Part shown: piece after piece, positions 1-7,777 of the stretch | Numbering within the stretch: the stretch's first letter is position 1 | Layout: every line of letters begins with the position of its first letter | Source: a virus | Taxonomy: Duplodnaviria > Heunggongvirae > Uroviricota > Caudoviricetes | DNA: 7,777 bases | Reading direction: 5' to 3' (one strand) | Virus record (IMG/VR): IMGVR_UViG_3300000059_000049 | Span: 1-7,777 of that record | Program-made: the position numbers and the translations under genes | The notes under the pieces: model-generated | What the model saw: only the letters and a program-made list of their open reading frames with translations | Told to the model about the DNA's origin: nothing | Databases searched by the model: none

Positions 1-96
1 AGGGTGAACATCCTCGTTAGTTCCGGCAAGCGCACTAATAACCTCATCGGCAGCTTCAATAATTTTCTTGGCCTGTTCTCTGGTAATACTGGTCAT
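1..96 (-). CDS. hypothetical protein, 5' part only (gene runs off the left edge of the window)
   Basis: ATG at 94-96 (minus strand) opens a frame that stays open for 32 codons to the window edge (MTSITREQAKKIIEAADEVISALAGTNEDVHP...). Same orientation as the rest of the block, 10 nt after the stop of the 107..640 gene. Only a weak SD upstream; not in the ORF track because it is short and truncated. Confidence 0.3.
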   Translation of the reverse strand, partial: MTSITREQAKKIIEAADEVISALAGTNEDVHP

Positions 97-106
97 AATT
101 TATGCT

Positions 107-640
107 TTAGTTGTAGCCAATCGGATTAACAGCAACAATAACGCCATCCGCGAACAAATCTTTAATGAGGTGTTCGCTCGGCTCGCCTTTTTCGTACTCT
201 TCAATAAGGTAAGTGTCTCCATCTTCATTGATATAAACAGGAAGAATGGAACCGTTGATGAAGTAGGTTCCGTTGTTATCGAGGATTTTTGCCTCGGCGA
301 TTTGTTTTTTGGTAAAACGATCTTCTTTTGTCAAAGTTGCCATATCTGTTTCCTTATGTGGGTTAATTTTATTGTGTAGCTTCCTGAATGGGGTCCACAC
401 TATATCGATATACAGTTCAACTAACGGTTCAAATACTCTCCCCATTAGAACAGTCACTAATATTGAGGCTATTGGTATCAGCAACACAAAAAACAGAATG
501 ATAAACAGCAATTCTATTGCTCTACTCTTTCGCGGATATTCTTTTCTGAATAAAGTGGGCATTTCCTCCCCATTAAATGCGTCAATGATTTCTCCAGTGT
601 TTTGCGCTGCACCGAAATTATCTTTAAATCCTTTTTTCAT
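107..640 (-). CDS. single-pass membrane protein of unknown function (177 aa), AT-rich cargo-like gene
   Basis: ORF with ATG at 638-640 preceded by GAGGAAG 11 nt upstream. Translation has a basic stretch (RKEYPRKSR) followed by one strongly hydrophobic segment (LLFIILFFVLLIPIASILVTVLM), then a ~110-aa hydrophilic domain. The region 100-660 is visibly more AT-rich than the rest of the window. An in-frame internal ATG at 341-343 is preceded by AGGAAACAG. Confidence 0.6.
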   Translation of the reverse strand: MKKGFKDNFGAAQNTGEIIDAFNGEEMPTLFRKEYPRKSRAIELLFIILFFVLLIPIASILVTVLMGRVFEPLVELYIDIVWTPFRKLHNKINPHKETDMATLTKEDRFTKKQIAEAKILDNNGTYFINGSILPVYINEDGDTYLIEEYEKGEPSEHLIKDLFADGVIVAVNPIGYN

Positions 641-646
641 CGTTTG

Positions 647-1336
647 CTATTCTTCCTCACATCCAAGATATGAAAGAGATGTAATTGCTTTCGCACGGAA
701 ACCACCAATATTCCTAAGCGCGCTTTTAAGTTCTTCAAGGTCAGATTGTGATTTGATCATGAAACTTAACCGCGCAATTCCAGACATAGAGTCAGAACCA
801 TTCACTGCGTTGTAGTGATATATGTATCGGGTGACTGATTGAGTCACGCCCTCCTGCTGGTGGTTTATATTGGCGTCCTGTCTTGTGTTGGCCTGCTCCA
901 ACTCTTCGATACGTTCAGCCATCGCAGCACACTCTTCAAAGTTGCTTAATGCTTTTCGCTCCGATTCAGCGCATTGTTTTTCCAGTTCTGCTATGCGCTT
1001 ACCTCCATCCACGATTACTCCCTCGTAATGCTCGCGCTGCTCGTTGAGTTTTGATTTTGCCGACTCCAGTTGTTTTGTTAGTTCCGCAATTCGGCAAACA
1101 TCGTTGATACGCGTTTCCTCTAATGCGTTGATCTCATCCAGTAGTGCCAAAGCAACCTTTGGATTAAAGGCAGCAATAAATTCAGCGTTGTTTTTCAGAA
1201 CGTGTTGCGCAATGGCCTGACTACTTAGTCGGACCTCATAACCACGTGCGCCACGGTGTGGTTTATATGAGTCCCAGTCTCCCCACGTTGCTTTCACTGC
1301 CGCCTCACGCAGTGCCTGGTAATTAATTTCGCTCAC
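647..1336 (-). CDS. Ea22-like (ead/Ea22 family) coiled-coil phage protein, 229 aa
   Basis: GTG start at 1334-1336 preceded by AGGAGG (spacing 6). N-terminus MSEINYQALREAA... shared with neighbouring paralogs; central segment predicted coiled-coil from sequence ([26 protein letters not shown]). Shares a 38-nt near-identical DNA segment with the 6256..6888 gene. Confidence 0.75.
   Translation of the reverse strand: MSEINYQALREAAVKATWGDWDSYKPHRGARGYEVRLSSQAIAQHVLKNNAEFIAAFNPKVALALLDEINALEETRINDVCRIAELTKQLESAKSKLNEQREHYEGVIVDGGKRIAELEKQCAESERKALSNFEECAAMAERIEELEQANTRQDANINHQQEGVTQSVTRYIYHYNAVNGSDSMSGIARLSFMIKSQSDLEELKSALRNIGGFRAKAITSLSYLGCEEE
1023..1060. repeat. 38-nt segment shared between Ea22-like paralogs (partner at 6560..6597)
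   Basis: tcgtaatgctcgcgctgctcgttgagttttgattttgc versus tcgtaatactcgcgttgctcgttgagttttgattttgc, 2 mismatches; encodes the KSKLNEQRE(H/Y)YEG segment in both proteins. Confidence 0.7.
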
Positions 1337-1347
1337 TGGTTGCCTCC
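1323..1347. repeat. gene-junction cassette ttaatttcgctcactggttgcctcc, copy 1 (copy 2 at 1768..1792, degenerate copy near 2030..2042)
   Basis: 25-nt segment repeated with 1 mismatch at 1768..1792. On the minus strand it reads GGAGGCAACCAGTGAGC..AAATTAA, i.e. SD plus GTG start plus first codons of an Ea22-like gene, and contains the TAA stop of the upstream gene. Confidence 0.7.
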
Positions 1348-1781
1348 TTATTAATCAGTTTATACAGGTGCACCACAGTCACAGAGAGTGCATCCATCGC
1401 TCTTTTATCTAGGCACGGGGCCAGAGCAACCAGTTCATTTATTGCAATCTGAATACGCTGCTCCGCCGCCAGCGTCGCGCGATTGCTCTCCAGTTCTGCA
1501 ATTCGGCACATGGCATCAATATTTGTGTCTTCCAGGCGCTTAATTTCGCCCAGGAGTGCCAGCGCAACTTTTGGTGGGATAGCCGCGATATAACGGGCAT
1601 TAGCACCAGCATTCCTTTGTCCATCAATGCCAGGCCAGTCAATAAAGTATCCGCAATGCCTACCCTCAGACGTGCGCGCAGGATAAATGCCGTTATGACC
1701 CGGCAAAATATATGCTACCCATTCATCTTGCGTTGCCTGTTCCGCCGCCTCGCGCAGTTCTTGATAGTTAATTTTGCTCAC
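1323..1781 (-). CDS. Ea22-like (ead/Ea22 family) phage protein, 152 aa
   Basis: GTG start at 1779-1781 preceded by GGAGG in the same junction cassette as the gene at 1336. N-terminus MSKINYQELREAAEQAT; PKVALALLGEI...CRIAEL segment paralogous to the 647..1336 product. Overlaps the downstream gene by 14 nt. Confidence 0.75.
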   Translation of the reverse strand: MSKINYQELREAAEQATQDEWVAYILPGHNGIYPARTSEGRHCGYFIDWPGIDGQRNAGANARYIAAIPPKVALALLGEIKRLEDTNIDAMCRIAELESNRATLAAEQRIQIAINELVALAPCLDKRAMDALSVTVVHLYKLINKEATSERN

Positions 1782-1792
1782 TGGTTGCCTCC
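1768..1792. repeat. gene-junction cassette, copy 2
   Basis: ttaattttgctcactggttgcctcc, 24 of 25 identical to 1323..1347. Confidence 0.7.
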
Positions 1793-2034
1793 GCTTCCCA
1801 CGTTTTCAGACTTTCACCACAGAACGGGCAAAATGAAACTCGAATAGGCGATTTAGAAAATTCACCAGACCGCAGCATGATCAGGTCTTGTGAATGAATT
1901 AATGCATGGTTATAGATTTTGTATTTCAGCAGACCTTTTCGCGTCGTGTATTCAGCGTCATGCTCCAGGGATTGTGCCAACGCCGCGCACGGTTCTATCT
2001 TGTTGCCATTAATTTGGCATTTTGACTCACTCAC
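1768..2034 (-). CDS. small diverged Ea22-like N-terminal paralog, 88 aa, with C-terminal CPFCG motif
   Basis: GTG start at 2032-2034 preceded by AGGGGG. The 5' coding DNA (gtgagtgagtcaaaatgccaaattaatggc...) is a degenerate copy of the gtgagcaaaattaactatcaa... start of the two downstream paralogs; KINGNKIEPCAALAQS aligns with KINYQELREAAEQATQ. Confidence 0.55.
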   Translation of the reverse strand: MSESKCQINGNKIEPCAALAQSLEHDAEYTTRKGLLKYKIYNHALIHSQDLIMLRSGEFSKSPIRVSFCPFCGESLKTWEAEATSEQN

Positions 2035-2635
2035 TGGTTGCCCCCTGAATACGCTTAAACTCTATTACCCATACCCATGGATTAGCATTCCAGCTTTCTT
2101 CGCTATAAATTGATTTCCATAGACTTGTGAAGGTGTCTTTTGCATAAACCACCAGCTCTGTTGCCAGCCCCATCTTGTTTGGCTTTCCATCAGACCAACG
2201 GACACCTTCAGAGCGTGCATCTTTTTCACTGATGTCGTTCAGCCGTTCCACACGCACATCGGTAATTTCCAGAAGAATGCGTGATGCCCAGCGCGGCATG
2301 TGAATTGATGGCGTCCACTTTTCTGATACAGGTTTATTACAAACCTCGACCGGAACCCGGTGCGTTTGTTCTGTCCAGGAGTTACGCACGCTTGCGCGAT
2401 AAACCAGCGTTGCGACGTCCGTCGCTTTGCCATGCACACGGTAAGTTTCACGAACCCAAATACGATCGCCCGGTTGACCATATGGACAATGCTTGGCAAG
2501 CGACTCTGCGGCCACTGCCCGTCCATAGAATTTTTCTTCAACAATTCTGCGAGTCTGTGTTTTATTCCCGCCAAGAATTGCCCGGACCATTTCATCGTTA
2601 AAAATCATCCCGCGTTCTTTCATTTTTTGATCCAC
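2027..2635 (-). CDS. hypothetical phage protein, possibly ASCH/PUA-like fold (202 aa as drawn)
   Basis: ORF 4 nt after the stop of the upstream gene. Start is uncertain: GTG at 2633-2635, or ATG at 2621-2623 or 2606-2608. N-terminal MVRAILGGNKTQTRR resembles the ASCH GxKxxExR signature; this is motif-level resemblance only. Confidence 0.65.
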   Translation of the reverse strand: MDQKMKERGMIFNDEMVRAILGGNKTQTRRIVEEKFYGRAVAAESLAKHCPYGQPGDRIWVRETYRVHGKATDVATLVYRASVRNSWTEQTHRVPVEVCNKPVSEKWTPSIHMPRWASRILLEITDVRVERLNDISEKDARSEGVRWSDGKPNKMGLATELVVYAKDTFTSLWKSIYSEESWNANPWVWVIEFKRIQGATSE

Positions 2636-2639
2636 TCCA

Positions 2640-3635
2640 TCAGTTATTGAACGTGATCACTCCGCGCTCGATGGCGAAGTCGAAAAGCTGGTTAGCGGCT
2701 ACGTAAAGGCGTATGCCATGTGCTTTTTCCCATGCCCGGACATCGTTTTCTGCGCTTCTGGCGCATTCATCGCAAAGAGGAACGGCCCAGCGATCGTGTT
2801 CGTTTAACGAGCGGGCGCGGTACATGAACGGGTGATTAACTTTGCCACCGCATCCGATGCACGGACGAGAAATCACAAACCGGAGATAAGCCGGGCTTTT
2901 ACCGAGAACCGCTTTTGGTCGGCGCATATACAGCAGGCCGGAATCCTCATCTACAGACAGGTTGACGATCTGCTCTGCGGTTATGTCCACCAGCTCACGG
3001 GTGCTGTGCTCCCAGGTGATATCCGATTCTTTCAGTGTGCCGGTAGGGATTTCCTGTTTTGGCTGACAAAATGCAATGCGACCGGCTTCATCTGGCAGCT
3101 CGTCTTTCAGATTCCGGCGAATGGCCCAAAAAGTGAGTTCAACCATGCTCAGATCGCGTTCTGGCGGTAGTTTTAACTCGCTCGCAGCCCAGTTCATAAC
3201 CCAGTTGGCACGATTCAGGGATAACTGGTCGTCCAGCTTGCCGTACCCCTTCATCATGTATTCCGCATCATGCTTCCAGCACAGGCGAACGGCAGAGCCG
3301 TTATAGAAATGAGTGGTTAGCTGGTGGCTGCAATCGCGCTTATCGTGCGCCTGGCAATCGTGGATATTGGAACTTACCCAATGAACAAGCGAATCTTCAC
3401 CGCCCAACGCGTTAAATACGCGCTCGCTTTGAAAAAACGGTTTCAGAGACTGGTTGGCAACCAGCGAATAATTCAGATCCACTACGCCATCTGGCGTGTT
3501 TTCAGCCTGTTCACGCGGAAGTGGAGAGATAATGAAACGGCGACCTGCGCCAATGTAGTTACTGGTGGGCTTGTCTACCGGAAAGACAGCCACACCAGCT
3601 CCGTTTACGAAATGAGGTGTGATTATTGCACTCAT
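2640..3635 (-). CDS. phage protein with C-terminal HNH-like Cys/His zinc-binding cluster (possibly DUF968-type), 331 aa
   Basis: ATG at 3633-3635, first gene after the only intergenic gap. The C-terminal cluster, encoded at roughly 2700-2870, is PCIGCGG...NHPF...NEHDRW...PLCDEC...KAHG (CxxC, H, N/H, CxxC, H), typical of HNH/His-Me finger modules. The large N-terminal region is unassigned. Confidence 0.8.
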   Translation of the reverse strand: MSAIITPHFVNGAGVAVFPVDKPTSNYIGAGRRFIISPLPREQAENTPDGVVDLNYSLVANQSLKPFFQSERVFNALGGEDSLVHWVSSNIHDCQAHDKRDCSHQLTTHFYNGSAVRLCWKHDAEYMMKGYGKLDDQLSLNRANWVMNWAASELKLPPERDLSMVELTFWAIRRNLKDELPDEAGRIAFCQPKQEIPTGTLKESDITWEHSTRELVDITAEQIVNLSVDEDSGLLYMRRPKAVLGKSPAYLRFVISRPCIGCGGKVNHPFMYRARSLNEHDRWAVPLCDECARSAENDVRAWEKAHGIRLYVAANQLFDFAIERGVITFNN

Positions 3636-3739
3636 AATGTATACCGACTCTGTTTTGTTCCGAGCGGTAAAATAATATGTTAGAAAATTAAAATCAATAT
3701 TCTAACATCATTTTGAGTGCATAAACGATGTGTTCAGGA
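3636..3739 (-). promoter_or_regulatory. intergenic region with candidate promoter (TTGATT, ~17 bp, TATTTT on minus strand) for the 3635 gene
   Basis: Only gap over 10 nt in the whole gene block; AT-rich. The minus-strand sequence ...tattgattttaattttctaacatattattttaccg... contains -35-like and -10-like hexamers at plausible spacing, overlapping the inverted repeat at 3677..3708. Predicted by eye only. Confidence 0.3.
3677..3708. promoter_or_regulatory. perfect 9-bp inverted repeat ATGTTAGAA-N14-TTCTAACAT (candidate operator)
   Basis: Read directly: 3677-3685 ATGTTAGAA and 3700-3708 TTCTAACAT are exact reverse complements, separated by 14 nt. It lies between the phosphatase stop (3740) and the start of the next gene (3635). 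Confidence 0.45.
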
Positions 3740-4426
3740 TTACAACTGCCCTCCCTTCACCTGCTTTAGCGTCAGATTCCCGCAAAAAACCGCGCCAGTG
3801 TCTATGTAGTGCTGGTTCCAGAAAGATTTCGGGCTGTTTACTGGCGTATGCCCGAAAATAAAGCTATCTGCACCAGTGATTATTCCACCAACACCATCAA
3901 CCGCGTCATAAAATCGCTCACGCCGCCAGGTAACATTGAGATCGCTAACAGGTTTACCAAACTGGTATTCGTTATCAGGATAGTCGGCATGGGCTATAAC
4001 GATAGTTTCATGCCCGGTGTTCAGCTCAATGATATAGGGCAAACGTCTTACCAGCTCCACCAGCGCCCTGGCTAATATTTCCCGATCAGCGTCCAGCATG
4101 AAGAACCATTGACCACCATTCATTAGCCAGTTATTCACGTTGCCTGCGGGACTTAACGCATCGATCATTAATCGCTCGTGGTTTCCCATAACCGACCGAA
4201 ACCAGGGCATCTGCAATAGCTCCAGGCATTCAACATTTTCGGTGCCGCGATCGATAAGGTCGCCAACCGATATCAGTAAATCCTGTGTAGGGTCAAAATC
4301 CACACGATGGAGTTCATTCATAAGTAGGGTGTAGCAACCGTGCAAATCACCAACAACCCATATGTTTCTGTAGCCTGAACCATCAATACGGCTATATAAA
4401 TTCACTTCATGCAGCACCTGGGTCAT
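3740..4426 (-). CDS. serine/threonine protein phosphatase, lambda PPase (ORF221/NinI) / PrpA-PrpB family, 228 aa
   Basis: ATG at 4424-4426 overlaps the upstream stop (ATGA). Translation carries the calcineurin-like phosphoesterase motifs GDLHG, GDLIDRG, GNHE and, near the C-terminus, GHTP, and aligns along its length with my recollection of lambda phosphatase ([12 protein letters not shown]..., [34 protein letters not shown]). The longer TTG-initiated form from 4456 is rejected. Confidence 0.9.
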
Positions 4427-4734
4427 GCGGCAACCTTCTCCCGCAGCCAGATACAAACCGGACCATCTTCAGTGTCATGAATAGAGCCAACAAACCAGCC
4501 TTCGCCCTCTGGTCGCTCCGGTTCCCAGGCGGCAATATCGGGACCATCTGCGTCCAGATTAAAATCATCTTCATCCATAGTTTGGATGGTCCACTGAAGA
4601 TTATTTGCCTTCAACCATGCGTCAAATTCTTCCGTTGAAATATATTCACGCCCTGCACAAAACTTTTCATACTCCGGATGTGTCCAGCAGCCATATTCAT
4701 CACGTTCTACCGGCATTTCTTTAATGATGCTCAC
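4423..4734 (-). CDS. hypothetical acidic phage protein, 103 aa
   Basis: GTG start at 4732-4734 with GGAGGA 8 nt upstream, overlapping the upstream stop (GTGA). Acidic, Trp-rich sequence ([22 protein letters not shown]...). A DUF551-like C-terminus is possible but not established. Confidence 0.65.
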
Positions 4735-4955
4735 TCTTCATCCTCCAAGTCGGCAACGGCCTCCATCACATCAGAACCGCGAATAACCTCAAAAGCACGG
4801 CAGGCCATTTCAAACACCTGTTGTTCTTGCGGATGCGGTGACTCCCAATACTTAAAACCAGGTCGATGCTCGTAACCCATCATGGAATAAAAATCGCCAG
4901 CAAGTTCAATCGCGGCATCAACAAGTTCGCGATTTGTCATCGTCTGTTCTGTCAT
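4731..4955 (-). CDS. hypothetical small acidic protein, 74 aa
   Basis: ATG at 4953-4955 overlaps the upstream stop (ATGA); AGGAAA upstream. Alternative in-frame ATG at 4938-4940. Acidic C-terminus (DLEDEE). Confidence 0.6.
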   Translation of the reverse strand: MTEQTMTNRELVDAAIELAGDFYSMMGYEHRPGFKYWESPHPQEQQVFEMACRAFEVIRGSDVMEAVADLEDEE

Positions 4956-5227
4956 TTTGTTTTTTCCTGTCTGAACATCACTATCATCAGGTCGCCTTTT
5001 GTCGCTATCCTCGCTGTTGTGCCTGGTTCAATGCTGCCAAGTTCAAATGCGTCATAGAACGCTTCTAATGCCTTCTGGCGTAGTTCCTGTTTGCGCCGTT
5101 TTTTCCACTGTTTCAGGAAAATGGAACCCAGCCATCGCCATGTACGGGACATGATGTAAAGCCAACCGAGAAGTGCCAGACCGGAATTTAGGAGCGTATC
5201 GATCGTTATTGTCGTGTCGATATTCAC
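4952..5227 (-). CDS. small membrane protein, 91 aa, one hydrophobic segment followed by a highly basic stretch
   Basis: GTG at 5225-5227 overlaps the upstream stop (GTGA), with strong SD AAGGAGG 7 nt upstream. Hydrophobic segment LLNSGLALLGWLYIM followed by KQWKKRRKQELRQK. Confidence 0.6.
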   Translation of the reverse strand: MNIDTTITIDTLLNSGLALLGWLYIMSRTWRWLGSIFLKQWKKRRKQELRQKALEAFYDAFELGSIEPGTTARIATKGDLMIVMFRQEKTK

Positions 5228-5934
5228 TGGCTGCCTCCTTTGCGAAGCTGTTCAGCAATACTTACGCATATCTCTGCGCCTCTAATCAGCCCCGGAACAT
5301 TCTTGTTTGGACCAACTTCACCATCGACAAAATCAATCATCGCGTTACGAGCCATATCCACGCCCTGCGCACGTACTTCAGCCAGGAAAGCATCGGTGGC
5401 TGGGGTGTCAACACGGATACTGTCGCGCAAGATGAAAAATGCATTGAGCATTCCAGTCTCTGGCACTTCATCCTGATGCTTCTCATACGCATCAAGAGCC
5501 TTCATCATCTCAGCTCCGAATGGTTGAGGGTGCACAGACTTCAGCTCCGCATTCTCCGCCGCCAGCACCGCGCGTTCGCTCTCCAGTTCTGTAATGCGCC
5601 GTCTTGCAGCATCCAGTTCAATCGACAATTTTTCCAACTGCTCTTTATGCTTCTTGTATTCCTGATATGCGTGCCAAGACTGACCTTTGCGCACACTATC
5701 CGTGATATCAGTAATCTGTTCTGGTGTTAGCGCGGTCAGTGCCTGTGCTGGGAAAATCAGCACTTTCCCGGAATCCCAATCAAAACCAGCGTGAATTGAC
5801 TGAACCTCAACTGAAGGTGTTGAACCAATGCTGCCAGGCGAATGAACAACGATCGTTACATCCATATCGCGACGATGGCTGTGGTTGTTGGACAAAATAC
5901 GATTCACCAACTCAGAAAATTTGGAAAATTTCAT
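5224..5934 (-). CDS. Ea22-like mosaic coiled-coil phage protein, 236 aa
   Basis: ATG at 5932-5934 overlaps the upstream stop (ATGA), AAGGGA upstream; the GTG-extended form from 5985 is rejected. Central segment predicted coiled-coil ([33 protein letters not shown]). C-terminal part paralogous to the 7115..7618 product ([12 protein letters not shown]; two near-identical DNA segments). Confidence 0.75.
5369..5403. repeat. 35-nt segment shared between paralogs (partner at 7347..7381)
   Basis: gcacgtacttcagccaggaaagcatcggtggctgg versus gcacgtatttcagccaggaaagcgtcggtggctgg, 2 mismatches; encodes PATDAFLAE(V/I)RA. A second shared segment lies at 5549..5574 and 7509..7534 (26 nt, 1 mismatch). Confidence 0.7.
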
Positions 5935-6254
5935 GCTGATTCCCTTTGCTCTTCCTGGATAATGTTGTTGCAATCTTTCACGCACTCGTTGCAGATGAAA
6001 ACGTTGTCCCCGGCAATTAACTTTTTAACGGTGTGCTGGGATTTGTTGCAGAAGCTGCAATAAAGCGTTGGACTGGCTGATACGGATGGTGCGCCAGATG
6101 TCAGCCGCGCGATGTCGTTCTTGCGACGCAATATCACACGGCTGCACTCGACCAGCATCTCCGGGGATATATCCTCCTCCGTGGCGAGCGCCTCCAGACG
6201 TTCGAGCAAGCGAAATACTTTTTCCTGGGTGATTGCAGAATGCGATGTGGTCAT
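5931..6254 (-). CDS. small phage protein with C-terminal ClpX-type C4 zinc-finger (ClpX zinc-binding-domain-like), 107 aa
   Basis: ATG at 6252-6254 with AAGGAG 6 nt upstream, 1 nt after the upstream stop. C-terminal [39 protein letters not shown] (encoded at roughly 5950-6070) matches, from memory, the E. coli ClpX N-terminal zinc-binding domain [40 protein letters not shown], including all four Cys. The N-terminal ~60 aa are unrelated; the AAA+ module is absent. Confidence 0.75.
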
Positions 6255-6255
6255 C

Positions 6256-6888
6256 TCACTCTCCTTTGATGCGAATGCCAGGGGCGCGTGGCACATTAAC
6301 TTCCACGATGCGCACAGTTGGTTTGTACATCTCAATTGCTGTCAGCCAGTCAGCTCCTGTCATGCGCTTTTCCGCATCGCCATTAGTCCACTGAACCGGT
6401 ACACCAATAGCCTTCATCGCGATTTCTATTTCCCCGGCAATGGCGCTTTTTCCGCAACCAGTAAAACCAGAAACAACGACAAGAACTTCACCTTTGGCTG
6501 GTTTTATTTCCCGTGCTTCCAGTTCTGCAATACGCTTACTCCCATCCGAGATAACACCTTCGTAATACTCGCGTTGCTCGTTGAGTTTTGATTTTGCTTC
6601 CTCAAGCTCAACACGCAGCTTCCCTACCGTTAGCGCAATATCCTCGTTCTCCTGGTCACGGCGTTTGATGTATTGCTGGTTTCTTTCCCGTTCATCCAGT
6701 AGTGCCAGCACGGTTTCTGGTCCGGCCAGAAATTTGAAGGCGTTGAGCGCATCAATATCCACACCGTAATCTTTAAGTTCCTGTTCACTTATCAGATCAT
6801 CATCAACTGGCAACATTAACAGGCGTTCCATTGCCGGAATTGCACGTTCTGCCGCCTCACGCAGCGCCAGTGTGTCGATATTGCTCAT
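6256..6888 (-). CDS. Ea22-like coiled-coil phage protein with a Walker-A-like GxxGxGKS motif in its C-terminal part, 210 aa
   Basis: ATG at 6886-6888 with GAGGAGG upstream, overlapping the upstream stop (ATGA). N-terminus [16 protein letters not shown]; [13 protein letters not shown] segment shared with 647..1336 (38-nt DNA repeat). [18 protein letters not shown] is encoded at about 6430-6475. The longer form from 6912 is rejected. Confidence 0.75.
6560..6597. repeat. 38-nt segment shared between Ea22-like paralogs (partner at 1023..1060)
   Basis: See partner at 1023..1060; read directly from the sequence. Confidence 0.7.
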
Positions 6889-7118
6889 TGTGCCTCCTCG
6901 ATTTCGTCCCATTCCACCCAGGCATTCTCTCCATCAGCATCGATTTCGCCTTTGTGACCGCATTTGGAACAGACGGCCTCATCACCCGCCCACAAAGAAT
7001 CTTTGGTTACCGACCATCCTGTTACCTTGGCTTTGCCGTGCTGGCACTTAGGGCAATCATCAAGCCATTCGACTTCGACCGTTGACGGACCAAATCCATG
7101 TTCAGTTCGGATGCTCAT
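6885..7118 (-). CDS. small zinc-ribbon protein (two CxxC pairs) with acidic C-terminus, 77 aa
   Basis: ATG at 7116-7118 overlaps the upstream stop (ATGA), AAGGAG 8 nt upstream. DDCPKCQHGKAKV...CSKCGHKGEI gives a CxxC-N26-CxxC zinc-ribbon pattern; ends EWDEIEEAQ. Confidence 0.7.
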   Translation of the reverse strand: MSIRTEHGFGPSTVEVEWLDDCPKCQHGKAKVTGWSVTKDSLWAGDEAVCSKCGHKGEIDADGENAWVEWDEIEEAQ

Positions 7119-7618
7119 GACTGAACTCCTTTGCGAATCTGTTCCGCCCATTCTTCAAGGGATTTCTCCGCATATTCACCGGACAGGCCATCAATTGGGT
7201 GCGGTTCATTAGCCAACTCTTCTTTCGCTGACAGAATCATGCGTGTAACGTCGAAAACTTCACGTAAAGACTTATTGATAAATCCGTGGTTGAAAGCGGC
7301 AGCAAGGCGGCTTGCGGTGTAGTTAATCCCCTCGTTGCGTGCCTCCGCACGTATTTCAGCCAGGAAAGCGTCGGTGGCTGGCATATTTCCTGTTACTTTC
7401 ATGGCCTCCAAAATAACCAGAACGCCATCTCGCCCAACCAACTCGGAGATAATCTCAGTGTTGTCGCCAACAACATCACAGAATGCCTGAACAGCTTTAC
7501 GAGCAAGTGCATTCTCCGCCGCCAGCGCCGCGCGCTCTTTCTCAAGTCGGGAAATTTCCGTTACATACTCAGCGTTACGCTCTGCCAGTTGTGCGGGCGT
7601 TAAACCTTCAGACTTCAT
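7115..7618 (-). CDS. Ea22-like mosaic coiled-coil phage protein, 167 aa
   Basis: ATG at 7616-7618 with AAGGAG 6 nt upstream. Predicted coiled-coil LEKERAALAAENALARKA and the [12 protein letters not shown] segment are paralogous to the 5224..5934 product, with near-identical DNA at 7347..7381 and 7509..7534. Confidence 0.75.
   Translation of the reverse strand: MKSEGLTPAQLAERNAEYVTEISRLEKERAALAAENALARKAVQAFCDVVGDNTEIISELVGRDGVLVILEAMKVTGNMPATDAFLAEIRAEARNEGINYTASRLAAAFNHGFINKSLREVFDVTRMILSAKEELANEPHPIDGLSGEYAEKSLEEWAEQIRKGVQS
7347..7381. repeat. 35-nt segment shared between paralogs (partner at 5369..5403)
   Basis: See partner at 5369..5403. Confidence 0.7.
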
Positions 7619-7777
7619 GCACTCTCCTTTCGAAATAAACGTACTGATTAATCATGCCCAGGGGCATTTCGAGTTTTTCTGCGATCTCACGGCGGGGAAC
7701 GCCACACTGATGAAGCTGCCGCGCCAGCTCTATATCGCTCTGCCGGTATTTGGCTGACTGGTGAAAGTCACCTTTCA
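7608..7777 (-). CDS. 3' end of a gene for a helix-turn-helix protein (start lies beyond the right edge)
   Basis: Minus-strand frame open from the window edge to TGA at 7608-7610: ...KGDFHQSAKYRQSDIELARQLHQCGVPRREIAEKLEMPLGMINQYVYFERRVHEV. The pattern resembles sigma-70 region-4 / LuxR-type HTH. Its last 11 nt overlap the start of the 7115..7618 gene. Not in the ORF track because no start codon lies within the window. Confidence 0.45.
   Translation of the reverse strand, partial: KGDFHQSAKYRQSDIELARQLHQCGVPRREIAEKLEMPLGMINQYVYFERRVHEV

Follow-up and report, generated by a model that had tools for sequence, protein, structure and literature searches.

A stretch of viral DNA of 7,777 nucleotides (nt) from a member of the Caudoviricetes (IMG/VR record IMGVR_UViG_3300000059_000049, positions 1 to 7,777) encodes several proteins that share short modules in different combinations, and the question raised by this locus is how such genes were put together. 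A sequence-only reading of the stretch, which at its full length is called the window below, had proposed a mosaic family of Ea22-like coiled-coil proteins, in which short shared DNA patches marked the exchange points of recombination. Twelve related loci (nine D6-like plasmids, phage D6, phiV10 and phiv142-3; L-numbers are locus labels) were aligned to the window, and the genes were examined with profile searches, structure models and shuffled controls. The results point to a mosaic formed by cassette exchange, and we give this explanation of the sequence pattern a probability of roughly 0.85.

The family genes and their assignment

The five genes in question are the following.

g6256: 6256..6888, minus strand; lambda-type Ea22 protein of 210 amino acids; PF13935 at 8.6e-35, 120.8 bits
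g647: 647..1336, minus strand; Ea22-like protein of 229 amino acids with its own C-terminal domain (phrog_29890); PF13935 at 1.1e-20, 75 bits; phrog_250 and phrog_29890
g1323: 1323..1781, minus strand; short Ea22-like protein of 152 amino acids; PF13935 at 7.3e-19, 69.1 bits, profile positions 1-90 of 139
g5224: 5224..5934, minus strand; EaE-like protein of 236 amino acids; phrog_368 at 8.6e-56, phrog_492 at 9e-28, phrog_614 at 1e-17, and phrog_6026
g7115: 7115..7618, minus strand; EaE-like protein (phiV10 gp46 type) of 167 amino acids; phrog_614 at 1.8e-55

In the Pfam profile search, g6256, g647 and g1323 exceeded the gathering threshold of PF13935, Ead_Ea22 (27 bits), which was missed by g5224, g7115 and g1768, a sixth gene treated below. 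On these profile matches we assign the first three to Ead_Ea22 and regard g5224 and g7115 as EaE-like proteins that draw on the same cassette pool; the Ea22-like label proposed for the whole family thus fits three of its five members. Homologues of g5224 that share its N-terminal domain and carry another middle cassette (63% identity, 100% query coverage) pass PF13935 at 32-38 bits, indicating that membership depends on the cassette carried. Database labels such as Ead_Ea22 can therefore hinge on one cassette of a protein. All-against-all BLASTP linked g6256 to g647 (E=1e-16), g1323 to g647 (E=1e-18), g5224 to g7115 (E=4e-5) and g1323 to g5224 (E=6e-4). The two groups also meet within single profiles and proteins: the first half of phrog_368 aligns the Ea22 N-terminal halves and its second half aligns g5224 and g7115, and D6 orf92 and the proteins in the g7115 slot of L008 (7356-8030) and L010 (7718-8356) join an Ead_Ea22 N-terminal part (5.8e-11) to an EaE-like C-terminal part ending QLRKGGNQ.

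The AlphaFold2 (AF2) model of g6256 consists of short helices at residues 6-55, a 69-residue helix at 57-125 (block-mean predicted local distance difference test, pLDDT, of 77-92) and a beta/alpha C-terminal region mostly below 50, which contains a GFTGCGKS motif and closes with GIRIKGE. This is the three-part layout of Ea22, namely an N-terminal region, a coiled coil and a C-terminal domain. The protein shares 61% identity with lambda Ea22 across the N-terminus and coiled coil, followed by a different C-terminal domain and the same GIRIKGE end, and a homologue search with it returned more than 8000 clusters. In g647, heptad-like segments were found at residues 62-110 and 138-166. The product of g1323 joins an Ea22 N-terminal half to the ELESNRATLAAE coiled-coil cassette, common to g5224, and a 45-residue tail, and has no C-terminal domain. 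As equivalents of g1323 are flagged by the annotation pipeline PGAP as incomplete Ea22-like pseudogenes (L001, L008, L009), g1323 itself may be a gene remnant that no longer works. Decay in the family was also seen at L001, where the g647 equivalent is broken by a frameshift (L001 4626-5323); the g1323 equivalents lie at L001 5448-5768 and L008 1501-2278.

The model of g5224 shows a low-confidence N-terminal helix with three strands, a helix at 87-134 (pLDDT 79-91) and a helical C-terminal region; the sequence runs from this helix through a middle cassette and an anchor to a C-terminal cassette ending QLRKGGSQ. The helix followed by three strands is the secondary-structure pattern of the N-termini of Ea22 from Shiga toxin (Stx) phages (PMC7093339). 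In g7115, a short N-terminus is followed by the EKERAALAAENA anchor, a middle cassette, a second anchor and a C-terminal cassette ending QIRKGVQS. In a crude heptad scan, each of the five proteins had segments beyond the 99th percentile of the null; among four comparison proteins, none were detected in g1768, the phosphatase and the DUF968 protein and one borderline segment, at the threshold, in the ASCH-like protein. Together with the AF2 models of g6256 and g5224, the scan bears out the earlier view of a coiled-coil family, all five proteins having a long heptad-like helix. Variation of the C-terminal domains, also proposed earlier, was confirmed, although it is not confined there, as N-terminal inserts and coiled-coil cassettes vary too.

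One of the genes originally listed with the family was rejected on its profile, BLASTP, hhalign and heptad results.

g1768: 1768..2034, minus strand; Cys-rich protein of 88 amino acids; phrog_4030 as sole match

It had no Pfam match, no BLASTP link to the family, no hit in hhalign against the Ea22 profile and no heptad-like segment. What it shares with the family is just the 16-25 nt junction GGAGGCAACCAGTGAG (at 2027-2051), whose 28 bits lie in the chance range; the modules ascribed to the other five products are indeed shared by them.

DNA patches shared among the five genes

The three repeats on which the earlier reading relied lie where it had placed them, with 36/38 nt identical at 1023/6560, 33/35 at 5369/7347 and 34/39 at 5549/7509, and they extend further than had been noted. 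The patches are listed below with the extended pairs and with the alignment breakpoints of the related loci, which are defined in the next section.

P1: 980..1069 (g647) and 6517..6606 (g6256), minus strand; pair 980-1069/6517-6606 of 90 nt, 83%, 96 bits; breakpoints in relatives at 977, 994, 1005, 6520, 6592 and 6602
P2: 1264..1349 (g647 start), minus strand; junction GGAGGCAACCA-GTG with the N-terminal MSxINYQxLREAAE module
P2, copy: 1709..1794 (g1323 start), minus strand; repeat with the copy at the g647 start, pair 1264-1347/1709-1792 of 84 nt, 76%, 71 bits
P2, copy: 6840..6898 (g6256 start), minus strand; N-terminal module only, 51-52 nt, 71-75%, 34.7 bits; P2 breakpoints in relatives at 1349, 1733, 1750, 6847 and 6868
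P3, the PATDAFLAE anchor: 5364..5403 (g5224) and 7342..7381 (g7115), minus strand; pair 5364-5403/7342-7381 of 40 nt, 92.5%; breakpoints at 5403, 7342 and 7381/7384
P4/5: 5549..5611 (g5224), 7509..7571 (g7115) and 1461..1518 (g1323), minus strand; pairs 5549-5587/7509-7547 of 39 nt, 87%, and 1461-1518/5554-5611 of 58 nt, 79%; breakpoints at 5550, 7509, 7547 and 1461
P6, PKVALALL...CRIAEL: 1080..1163 (g647) and 1492..1575 (g1323), minus strand; pair 1080-1162/1492-1574 of 83 nt, 67%; joint of the L006/L010/L011 hybrid at window 1162/1550
P6, short copy: 6691..6721 (g6256), minus strand; breakpoints at 6707-6720 in seven relatives
P7, junction: 5223..5256, with its partner at 7115..7147 (g7115 3' end), minus strand; AAAGGAGG before an overlapping GTG start; 22 nt, 91%
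P8, junction: 6255..6290, minus strand; ggcattcgcatcAAAGGAGagTGAgATG, which encodes GIRIKGE-stop and contains the Shine-Dalgarno sequence of the next gene (ATG at 6254)

The patches are in-frame direct repeats, and the extended repeats span 39-90 nt at 67-93% identity. With identities of 67-95% over the patches and exact runs of just 11-23 nt, the description of them as near-identical was too strong. Six main pairs scored 47-96 bits, with E as low as 7e-22, and three further pairs 35-38 bits. When the window was shuffled 40 times by codon blocks, the best self-match averaged 24.8 +/- 1.9 bits with a maximum of 30, and nine real self-matches exceeded all of the shuffles; the same comparison, with the strong profile matches, disposes of the possibility that the main patches are chance similarities among unrelated proteins. 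Codon-by-codon tracks showed patches mostly identical at all three positions, with flanks that could not be aligned. At positions of identical amino acids in the patches, the same codon was used in 64 of 93 cases against 33.7 expected from the codon usage of the window (P=2e-10). This excess indicates that the similarity reflects shared DNA ancestry, beyond protein constraint.

Hybrid genes, cassette reassortment and breakpoints in related loci

Individual hybrid genes were found in the related loci. A single Ea22 gene in L006, L010 and L011 encodes residues 1-77 of g1323 followed by residues 66-229 of g647, with the joint in the PKVALALL patch; a fused gene of the L006 type is the expected product of unequal crossover between the tandem g1323/g647 pair of the window, or the reverse. 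The EaE-like protein of L014 corresponds to g5224 with a g7115-type middle cassette, placed exactly between the ERAxLAAENA and PATDAFLAE anchors. In eight relatives, a replacement in g6256 begins at the KSKLNEQRE patch edge and runs as far as the GIRIKGE junction, homology being lost at 6592/6602 and regained at 6279/6288. The 3' half of g7115 is approximately 96% identical in phiV10 and phiv142-3, stopping at the PATDAFLAE patch (95.8% nucleotide identity with phiV10 gp46 from the 3' end up to this patch), whereas five relatives have only the first 37 codons of g7115 in common, up to the ERAALAAENA patch, with homology kept only from 7509 upward. In L008, the first 13 codons of g7115 are fused to an orf92-type body. 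Individual cassettes reach 94-97% nucleotide identity in phiV10 and phiv142-3, both of which are epsilon15-like.

A set of 106 complete g5224 homologues also showed the reassortment of cassettes. Their first 127 residues were nearly invariant, and were followed by one of seven middle cassettes (LAAEN to PATDAFLAE) and one of nine C-terminal cassettes (AFLAE-RA to QLRKGG-Q), which are separated by the P3 anchor. The occupied combinations numbered 20 of 63, and eight quartets of cassettes occurred in all four combinations. In the g6256 family, alternative coiled-coil cassettes were found downstream of LTVGKLRVE, and some members carried the g647-type INALEETRINDVCRIAELTKQ segment.

Breakpoints were defined as the ends of alignments of at least 100 nt inside the five genes, which gave 37 distinct positions merged into 28 sites. 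Patches accounted for 33.5% of the gene space and held 27 of the 28 sites (binomial P=3e-12), and 15 of the 28 lay 6 nt or less from a patch edge (P=2e-7). These breakpoints, with the hybrid genes and the reassortment, support the view of the patches as exchange points for recombination, as had been suggested from the repeats of the window.

Several observations weigh against this reading. The sites in the breakpoint test are not fully independent of one another, since related plasmids have breakpoints in common by descent; some alignment ends stem from paralogous matches of a patch only, and P8, the GIRIKGE junction, was defined by comparison with lambda and not by a repeat within the window. 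The exchange points deduced from the individual hybrid cases stand without the breakpoint statistics. The PKVALALL patch of g647 and g1323 showed no codon excess (8 against 6.8 expected), and protein constraint is possible for this pair. Furthermore, the exact runs between patch copies within the window (only 11-23 nt) are short for efficient RecA-dependent exchange in view of its minimal homology, and better-matched partners or relaxed recombinases must therefore have been involved; no recombinase gene was found in the window. The comparison of the Ea22 and g5224 families by hhalign was weak, confined to the coiled coil and of 14% probability, and for this reason only a shared cassette pool is claimed here, not a deep homology over the full length. 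The variable domains were modelled at low confidence (pLDDT mostly below 50-70) and had no fold matches.

Alternative explanations for the shared patches

Duplication followed by divergence in place within the plasmid lineage, with occasional unequal crossover and no horizontal exchange of cassettes, would account for the tandem g1323/g647 pair with its common N-terminal module, and relatives with one fused gene and the joint in a shared patch carry the signature of unequal crossover. As the full explanation it is unlikely, as cassettes 94-97% identical to those of the window occur in epsilon15-like phages that are otherwise unrelated in gene content, the same C-terminal domain occupies different operon slots in D6 and L014 when compared with the window, and lambda ea22 has the coiled coil and the 3' junction in common but not the C-terminal domain. 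In-place events are therefore considered one contributor, not the whole story.

It is a good deal less probable that selection on the proteins, for their coiled-coil or oligomerisation motifs, is all that kept the patches in anciently diverged paralogues, with no role of the patches in recombination. The patches do encode heptad-like helix segments, and the PKVALALL patch of g647/g1323 is free of an identical-codon excess, but the overall codon identity given above is nearly twice the expected value, flanks cannot be aligned where patches are 79-95% identical in DNA, and the breakpoints and hybrid genes of the relatives sit in the patches while the cassettes reassort.

The many alternative cassettes between fixed anchors might suggest a dedicated diversification machinery, whether a diversity-generating retroelement or a site-specific system of the invertase-shufflon or another kind, and yet it is highly improbable here: no reverse transcriptase, invertase or other site-specific recombinase was found in the window or in the flanks of the 12 relatives, the repeats are direct and in frame with inverted repeats in the window at chance level only (at most 20 nt at 80% identity), and the alternative cassettes reside in other phages instead of lying silent in the same genome. 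Chance matching, such as a bias towards E, A, L, K and R in coiled-coil-coding sequence might produce, can practically be dismissed, since nine self-matches of up to 96 bits beat all 40 shuffles and the Pfam and PHROG matches are strong, even though the short junction matches (16-25 nt, 22-30 bits) fall within the shuffle range (maximum 30).

Proposed mechanism of cassette exchange

Under the mosaic explanation, the N-terminal helix module of each of the three Ea22/Ead proteins would be followed by a coiled-coil stalk that ends in a variable domain. In the two EaE-like proteins, the N-terminus would be variable, and the coiled coil would lead through a middle cassette into a helical C-terminal cassette. 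The five genes would be assembled and reassorted by homologous recombination, with short stretches of conserved DNA serving as in-frame anchors. One kind of anchor would lie within coiled-coil coding sequence, for example ELExERAxLAAENA and PATDAFLAE, and another at junctions that hold the ribosome-binding site of the next gene, namely GIRIKGE-stop/AAAGGAG and QLRKGG-Q-stop/AAAGGAGG-GTG-MSxIxYQALREAA. Exchange would take place inside the operon through unequal crossover between tandem paralogues, and also among unrelated temperate phages of lambda-like, epsilon15-like and P1-like types that meet in Escherichia coli. Relaxed phage recombinases would be the presumed agents, possibly together with RecA aided by the adjacent Ref.

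By analogy with Ea22 of lambda and Stx phages, we infer that the proteins may act as oligomeric coiled-coil stalks whose exchangeable heads are offered to partners from the host or from phages, and may thereby influence the lysogeny decision. A broader and more speculative proposal, to which we attach only limited weight, is that the patches are selected linkers, and that Ea22/EaD and EaE-type genes constitute a combinatorial cassette system across temperate phages that are otherwise unrelated, namely P1-like phage-plasmids and phages of the lambda-like and epsilon15-like types. Fixed coiled-coil anchors and Shine-Dalgarno junctions would then allow in-frame exchange of heads. The probable setting would be an arms race over host targets, for example in lysogeny control or counter-defence. 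As a corollary, K/RGE and RKGG would be nucleotide-level signals, combining a ribosome-binding site with a recombination linker, and not protein motifs.

Searches for the function of the variable domains

Sequence searches of the Protein Data Bank (PDB) with four proteins gave only insignificant matches (E of at least 0.1), and Foldseek searches with the g6256 and g5224 models against viral predicted structures returned nothing at E <= 0.001. As the variable domains were of low confidence and without a Foldseek match, no function is assigned to the cassettes. The NCBIfam scan of the window proteins matched no family, the PADLOC defence models gave only weak coiled-coil matches to JetC (E of at least 7e-4, 12-16 bits), and no tail-fibre homology was found in the Pfam and PHROG profile searches of the window proteins.

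The Walker-A-like GFTGCGKS motif lies in the C-terminal domain of g6256 (6259-6520, residues 123-210) and was invariant among 30 homologues apart from one substitution in one of them. A weak match of this domain to the SRP54 P-loop was obtained (E=0.2). These data speak neither for nor against nucleotide binding, as the domain, with approximately 85 residues, is too short for a nucleoside triphosphatase and its AF2 model is poor.

Junctions between genes and the conserved C-terminal motifs

Two types of junction were recognized. The type A junction, ggcattcgc(a/c)tcAAAGGAGagTGAgATG, encodes GIR(I/L)KGE-stop and is followed by the ATG of the next gene. Ea22 genes for four unrelated C-terminal domains end in this junction, ahead of differing downstream genes; the 3' end of lambda ea22 has the same 25-nt junction with ATC in place of ATG, and 933W and phiV10 have the variant AAA(A/G)GAGGTGAGTAATG. 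The type B junction, cgcAAAGGAGGCAACCAGTGAgc.a.att.a.taccaggcactgcgtgagg, encodes (Q/E)(L/I)RKGGNQ-stop and overlaps a GTG start, from which MSxIxYQALRE is read. The P2 junction was also found 3' of QLRKGGNQ-stop in L008, L009, L010, L012 and L013.

The KGE residues of Ea22 and the RKG residues of the EaE-like proteins are encoded by AAAGGAG, located 6-7 nt upstream of the next start codon (6255-6270; 5223-5245; 7115-7135; L005 1040-1075). The K/RGE end of Ea22 proteins has been described as being of unknown significance (PMC7093339). From the sequence of these junctions, the conserved C-terminal K/RGE residues may represent the Shine-Dalgarno sequence of the next, tightly abutting gene, which is a simple explanation for their conservation and possibly a new point. 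In the window, the C-terminal K/R-G-E tripeptide was present in one of the three Ea22 proteins, g6256 (GIRIKGE), as g647 ends with GCEEE and g1323 with SERN.

Relation to known systems

Ea22 has been described as a pro-lysogenic scaffold protein that presents variable heads to host partners; its tetramerising coiled coil separates the N-terminal region from a variable C-terminal domain, and it occurs in mosaic variants (PMC7093339, PMC10834534), with up to three variants per genome (PMC7093339, PMC8614690, PMC10834534). The locus resembles the Ea22 system of lambda and Stx phages (PF13935 / IPR025153) in the 61% identity of g6256 with its GIRIKGE end and 25-nt 3' junction, and in g647 and g1323 passing the Pfam threshold. 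The three-part architecture, mosaic blocks, unrelated C-terminal domains and several variants per genome were already described there. It differs in position, being located between ref and pmgU/hot/humD of a P1-family phage-plasmid and not in the exo-xis region under pL, and in number, with three copies and two EaE-like relatives in one operon. In addition, no C-terminal domain of the window equals the solved lambda domain, as judged from the lack of a PDB sequence match.

The likeness to EaE-like proteins of P22/ES18/phiV10-type phages (PHROGs 614, 492 and 368) rests on the C-terminal half of g7115, which has 95.8% DNA identity to phiV10 gp46, annotated as an 'eae-like protein', and on g5224 having the two anchors and the RKGG-Q end in common with them. 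The N-terminal helix-plus-three-strand domain of g5224 is an extra part. No curated Pfam or NCBIfam family was matched by g5224 or g7115.

In the boundary-sequence model, as it is recounted in PMC3233612, short conserved sequences at module borders serve as recombination targets (Susskind and Botstein 1978; Clark et al. 2001). Rad52-like phage recombinases have been reported to recombine short, diverged homologies and to leave mosaics with a median length of approximately 400-500 bp and a median identity of approximately 95% (De Paepe et al. 2014, PMC3945230). The exchanged segments here are similar, with approximately 95% identity, a length of a few hundred bp and flanking traces of homology at lower identity. 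Unlike the boundary-sequence model, many of the anchors are intragenic, in coiled-coil coding sequence, and sub-gene cassettes are shuffled in frame; and the divide between lambda-like and P1-like phages is crossed, which De Paepe et al. did not see among functional phages (PMC3945230). Approximately 30% of the genes of P1-like phage-plasmids recombine, with frequent exchange (PMC10879196), and crossing of the divide is consistent with this gene flow.

Published work already covers mosaic Ea22 genes, the presence of several variants in a genome and recombination at boundary sequences. The locus thus adds a well-resolved case to a phenomenon and a family that are both known, and its novelty is modest; it reveals no new kind of system. 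The extensions, also modest, are the phage-plasmid context, which shows lambda-type early accessory genes circulating in P1-family phage-plasmids, the finding that EaE-like proteins draw on that cassette pool too, and the interpretation of the C-terminal motifs as ribosome-binding sites. With five paralogues and their anchors within 7 kb and relatives that show the recombinants, the locus is a compact natural case of in-frame sub-gene domain shuffling, convenient for measuring the limits of anchor length and divergence and for determining which recombinases (RecA with Ref, or Red/RecT/Erf) build phage mosaics. Tail-fibre and receptor-binding genes likewise keep conserved N-terminal or stalk segments with distal domains swapped between unrelated phages, whereas the genes of the window encode non-structural early proteins.

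Replicon and operon

The top DNA matches of the window were E. coli plasmids of 90-95 kb at 97-98% identity, always split into 4-9 pieces; matching E. coli records numbered roughly 3600. Among 5426 complete E. coli genomes, only six covered at least 80% of the window and none was collinear with it, the best covering 92% in four pieces. The best phage match was D6, with 56% covered at 91.6% identity. Annotation of the D6-like records puts ref on one side of the operon and the pmgU/hot/humD/phd region on the other. On these matches, we identify the replicon as a D6-like (P1-family) phage-plasmid of E. coli of approximately 90 kb and the window as its early-type accessory operon. The lambdoid prophage setting assumed by the sequence-only reading was thus the wrong replicon, although the genes in the window are of lambdoid early-accessory type.

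The minus strand carries every substantial open reading frame (ORF) of the window, with 15 genes in one stack. Neighbouring genes overlap at ten of the 14 junctions (as ATGA or GTGA at seven), and at 13 they lie within 6 nt of each other. A scan for sigma-70-like promoters detected none on the coding (minus) strand and one on the plus strand of the window, against 9.2 +/- 2.6 expected. As promoter-like sites are depleted and most junctions overlap, the window is probably the interior of a single long, translationally coupled operon. The notion of patches as internal promoters was dropped because no site was found on the coding strand. No RNA family was matched in the Rfam scan of the window.

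Neighbouring genes

The Ea22 gene g6256 is followed 2 nt past its stop by the start of a gene (5931-6254) for a free-standing ClpX-type C4 zinc-finger protein (PF06689, 1.4e-17), a position kept in D6-like plasmids. This protein might modulate the substrate choice of ClpXP. The D6-like plasmids also carry phd/doc, and Phd of P1 is a ClpXP substrate. Small proteins with paired cysteines (CPKC...CSKC and KC...C...CPFC), zinc-ribbon-like, are encoded at 6885-7118 and 1768-2034 (phrog_4446 and phrog_4030, respectively).

At 107-640, an ORF of 177 residues joins a DUF4014 part (residues 28-97) and a phrog_8930 part (62-177); in close relatives, this region is annotated as a truncated DUF4014 pseudogene and a small ORF of its own. 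The difference reflects either a further mosaic joint or a frameshift. The conserved core of the operon includes a lambda-type Ser/Thr phosphatase (Ppp/NinI-like metallophosphoesterase) at 3740-4426 and a DUF968/HNH protein (P1 PdcB-like) at 2640-3635, which are 91-99% identical in relatives where aligned, unlike the flanking mosaic genes. The ASCH-like gene at 2027-2640 is a second variable spot, with breakpoints at 2046, 2217, 2311 and 2546; in some relatives, this spot holds an insertion with a PAPS-reductase-family gene and two small ORFs (L001 6018-7898, L009 3530-5410 and L011 3029-5059).

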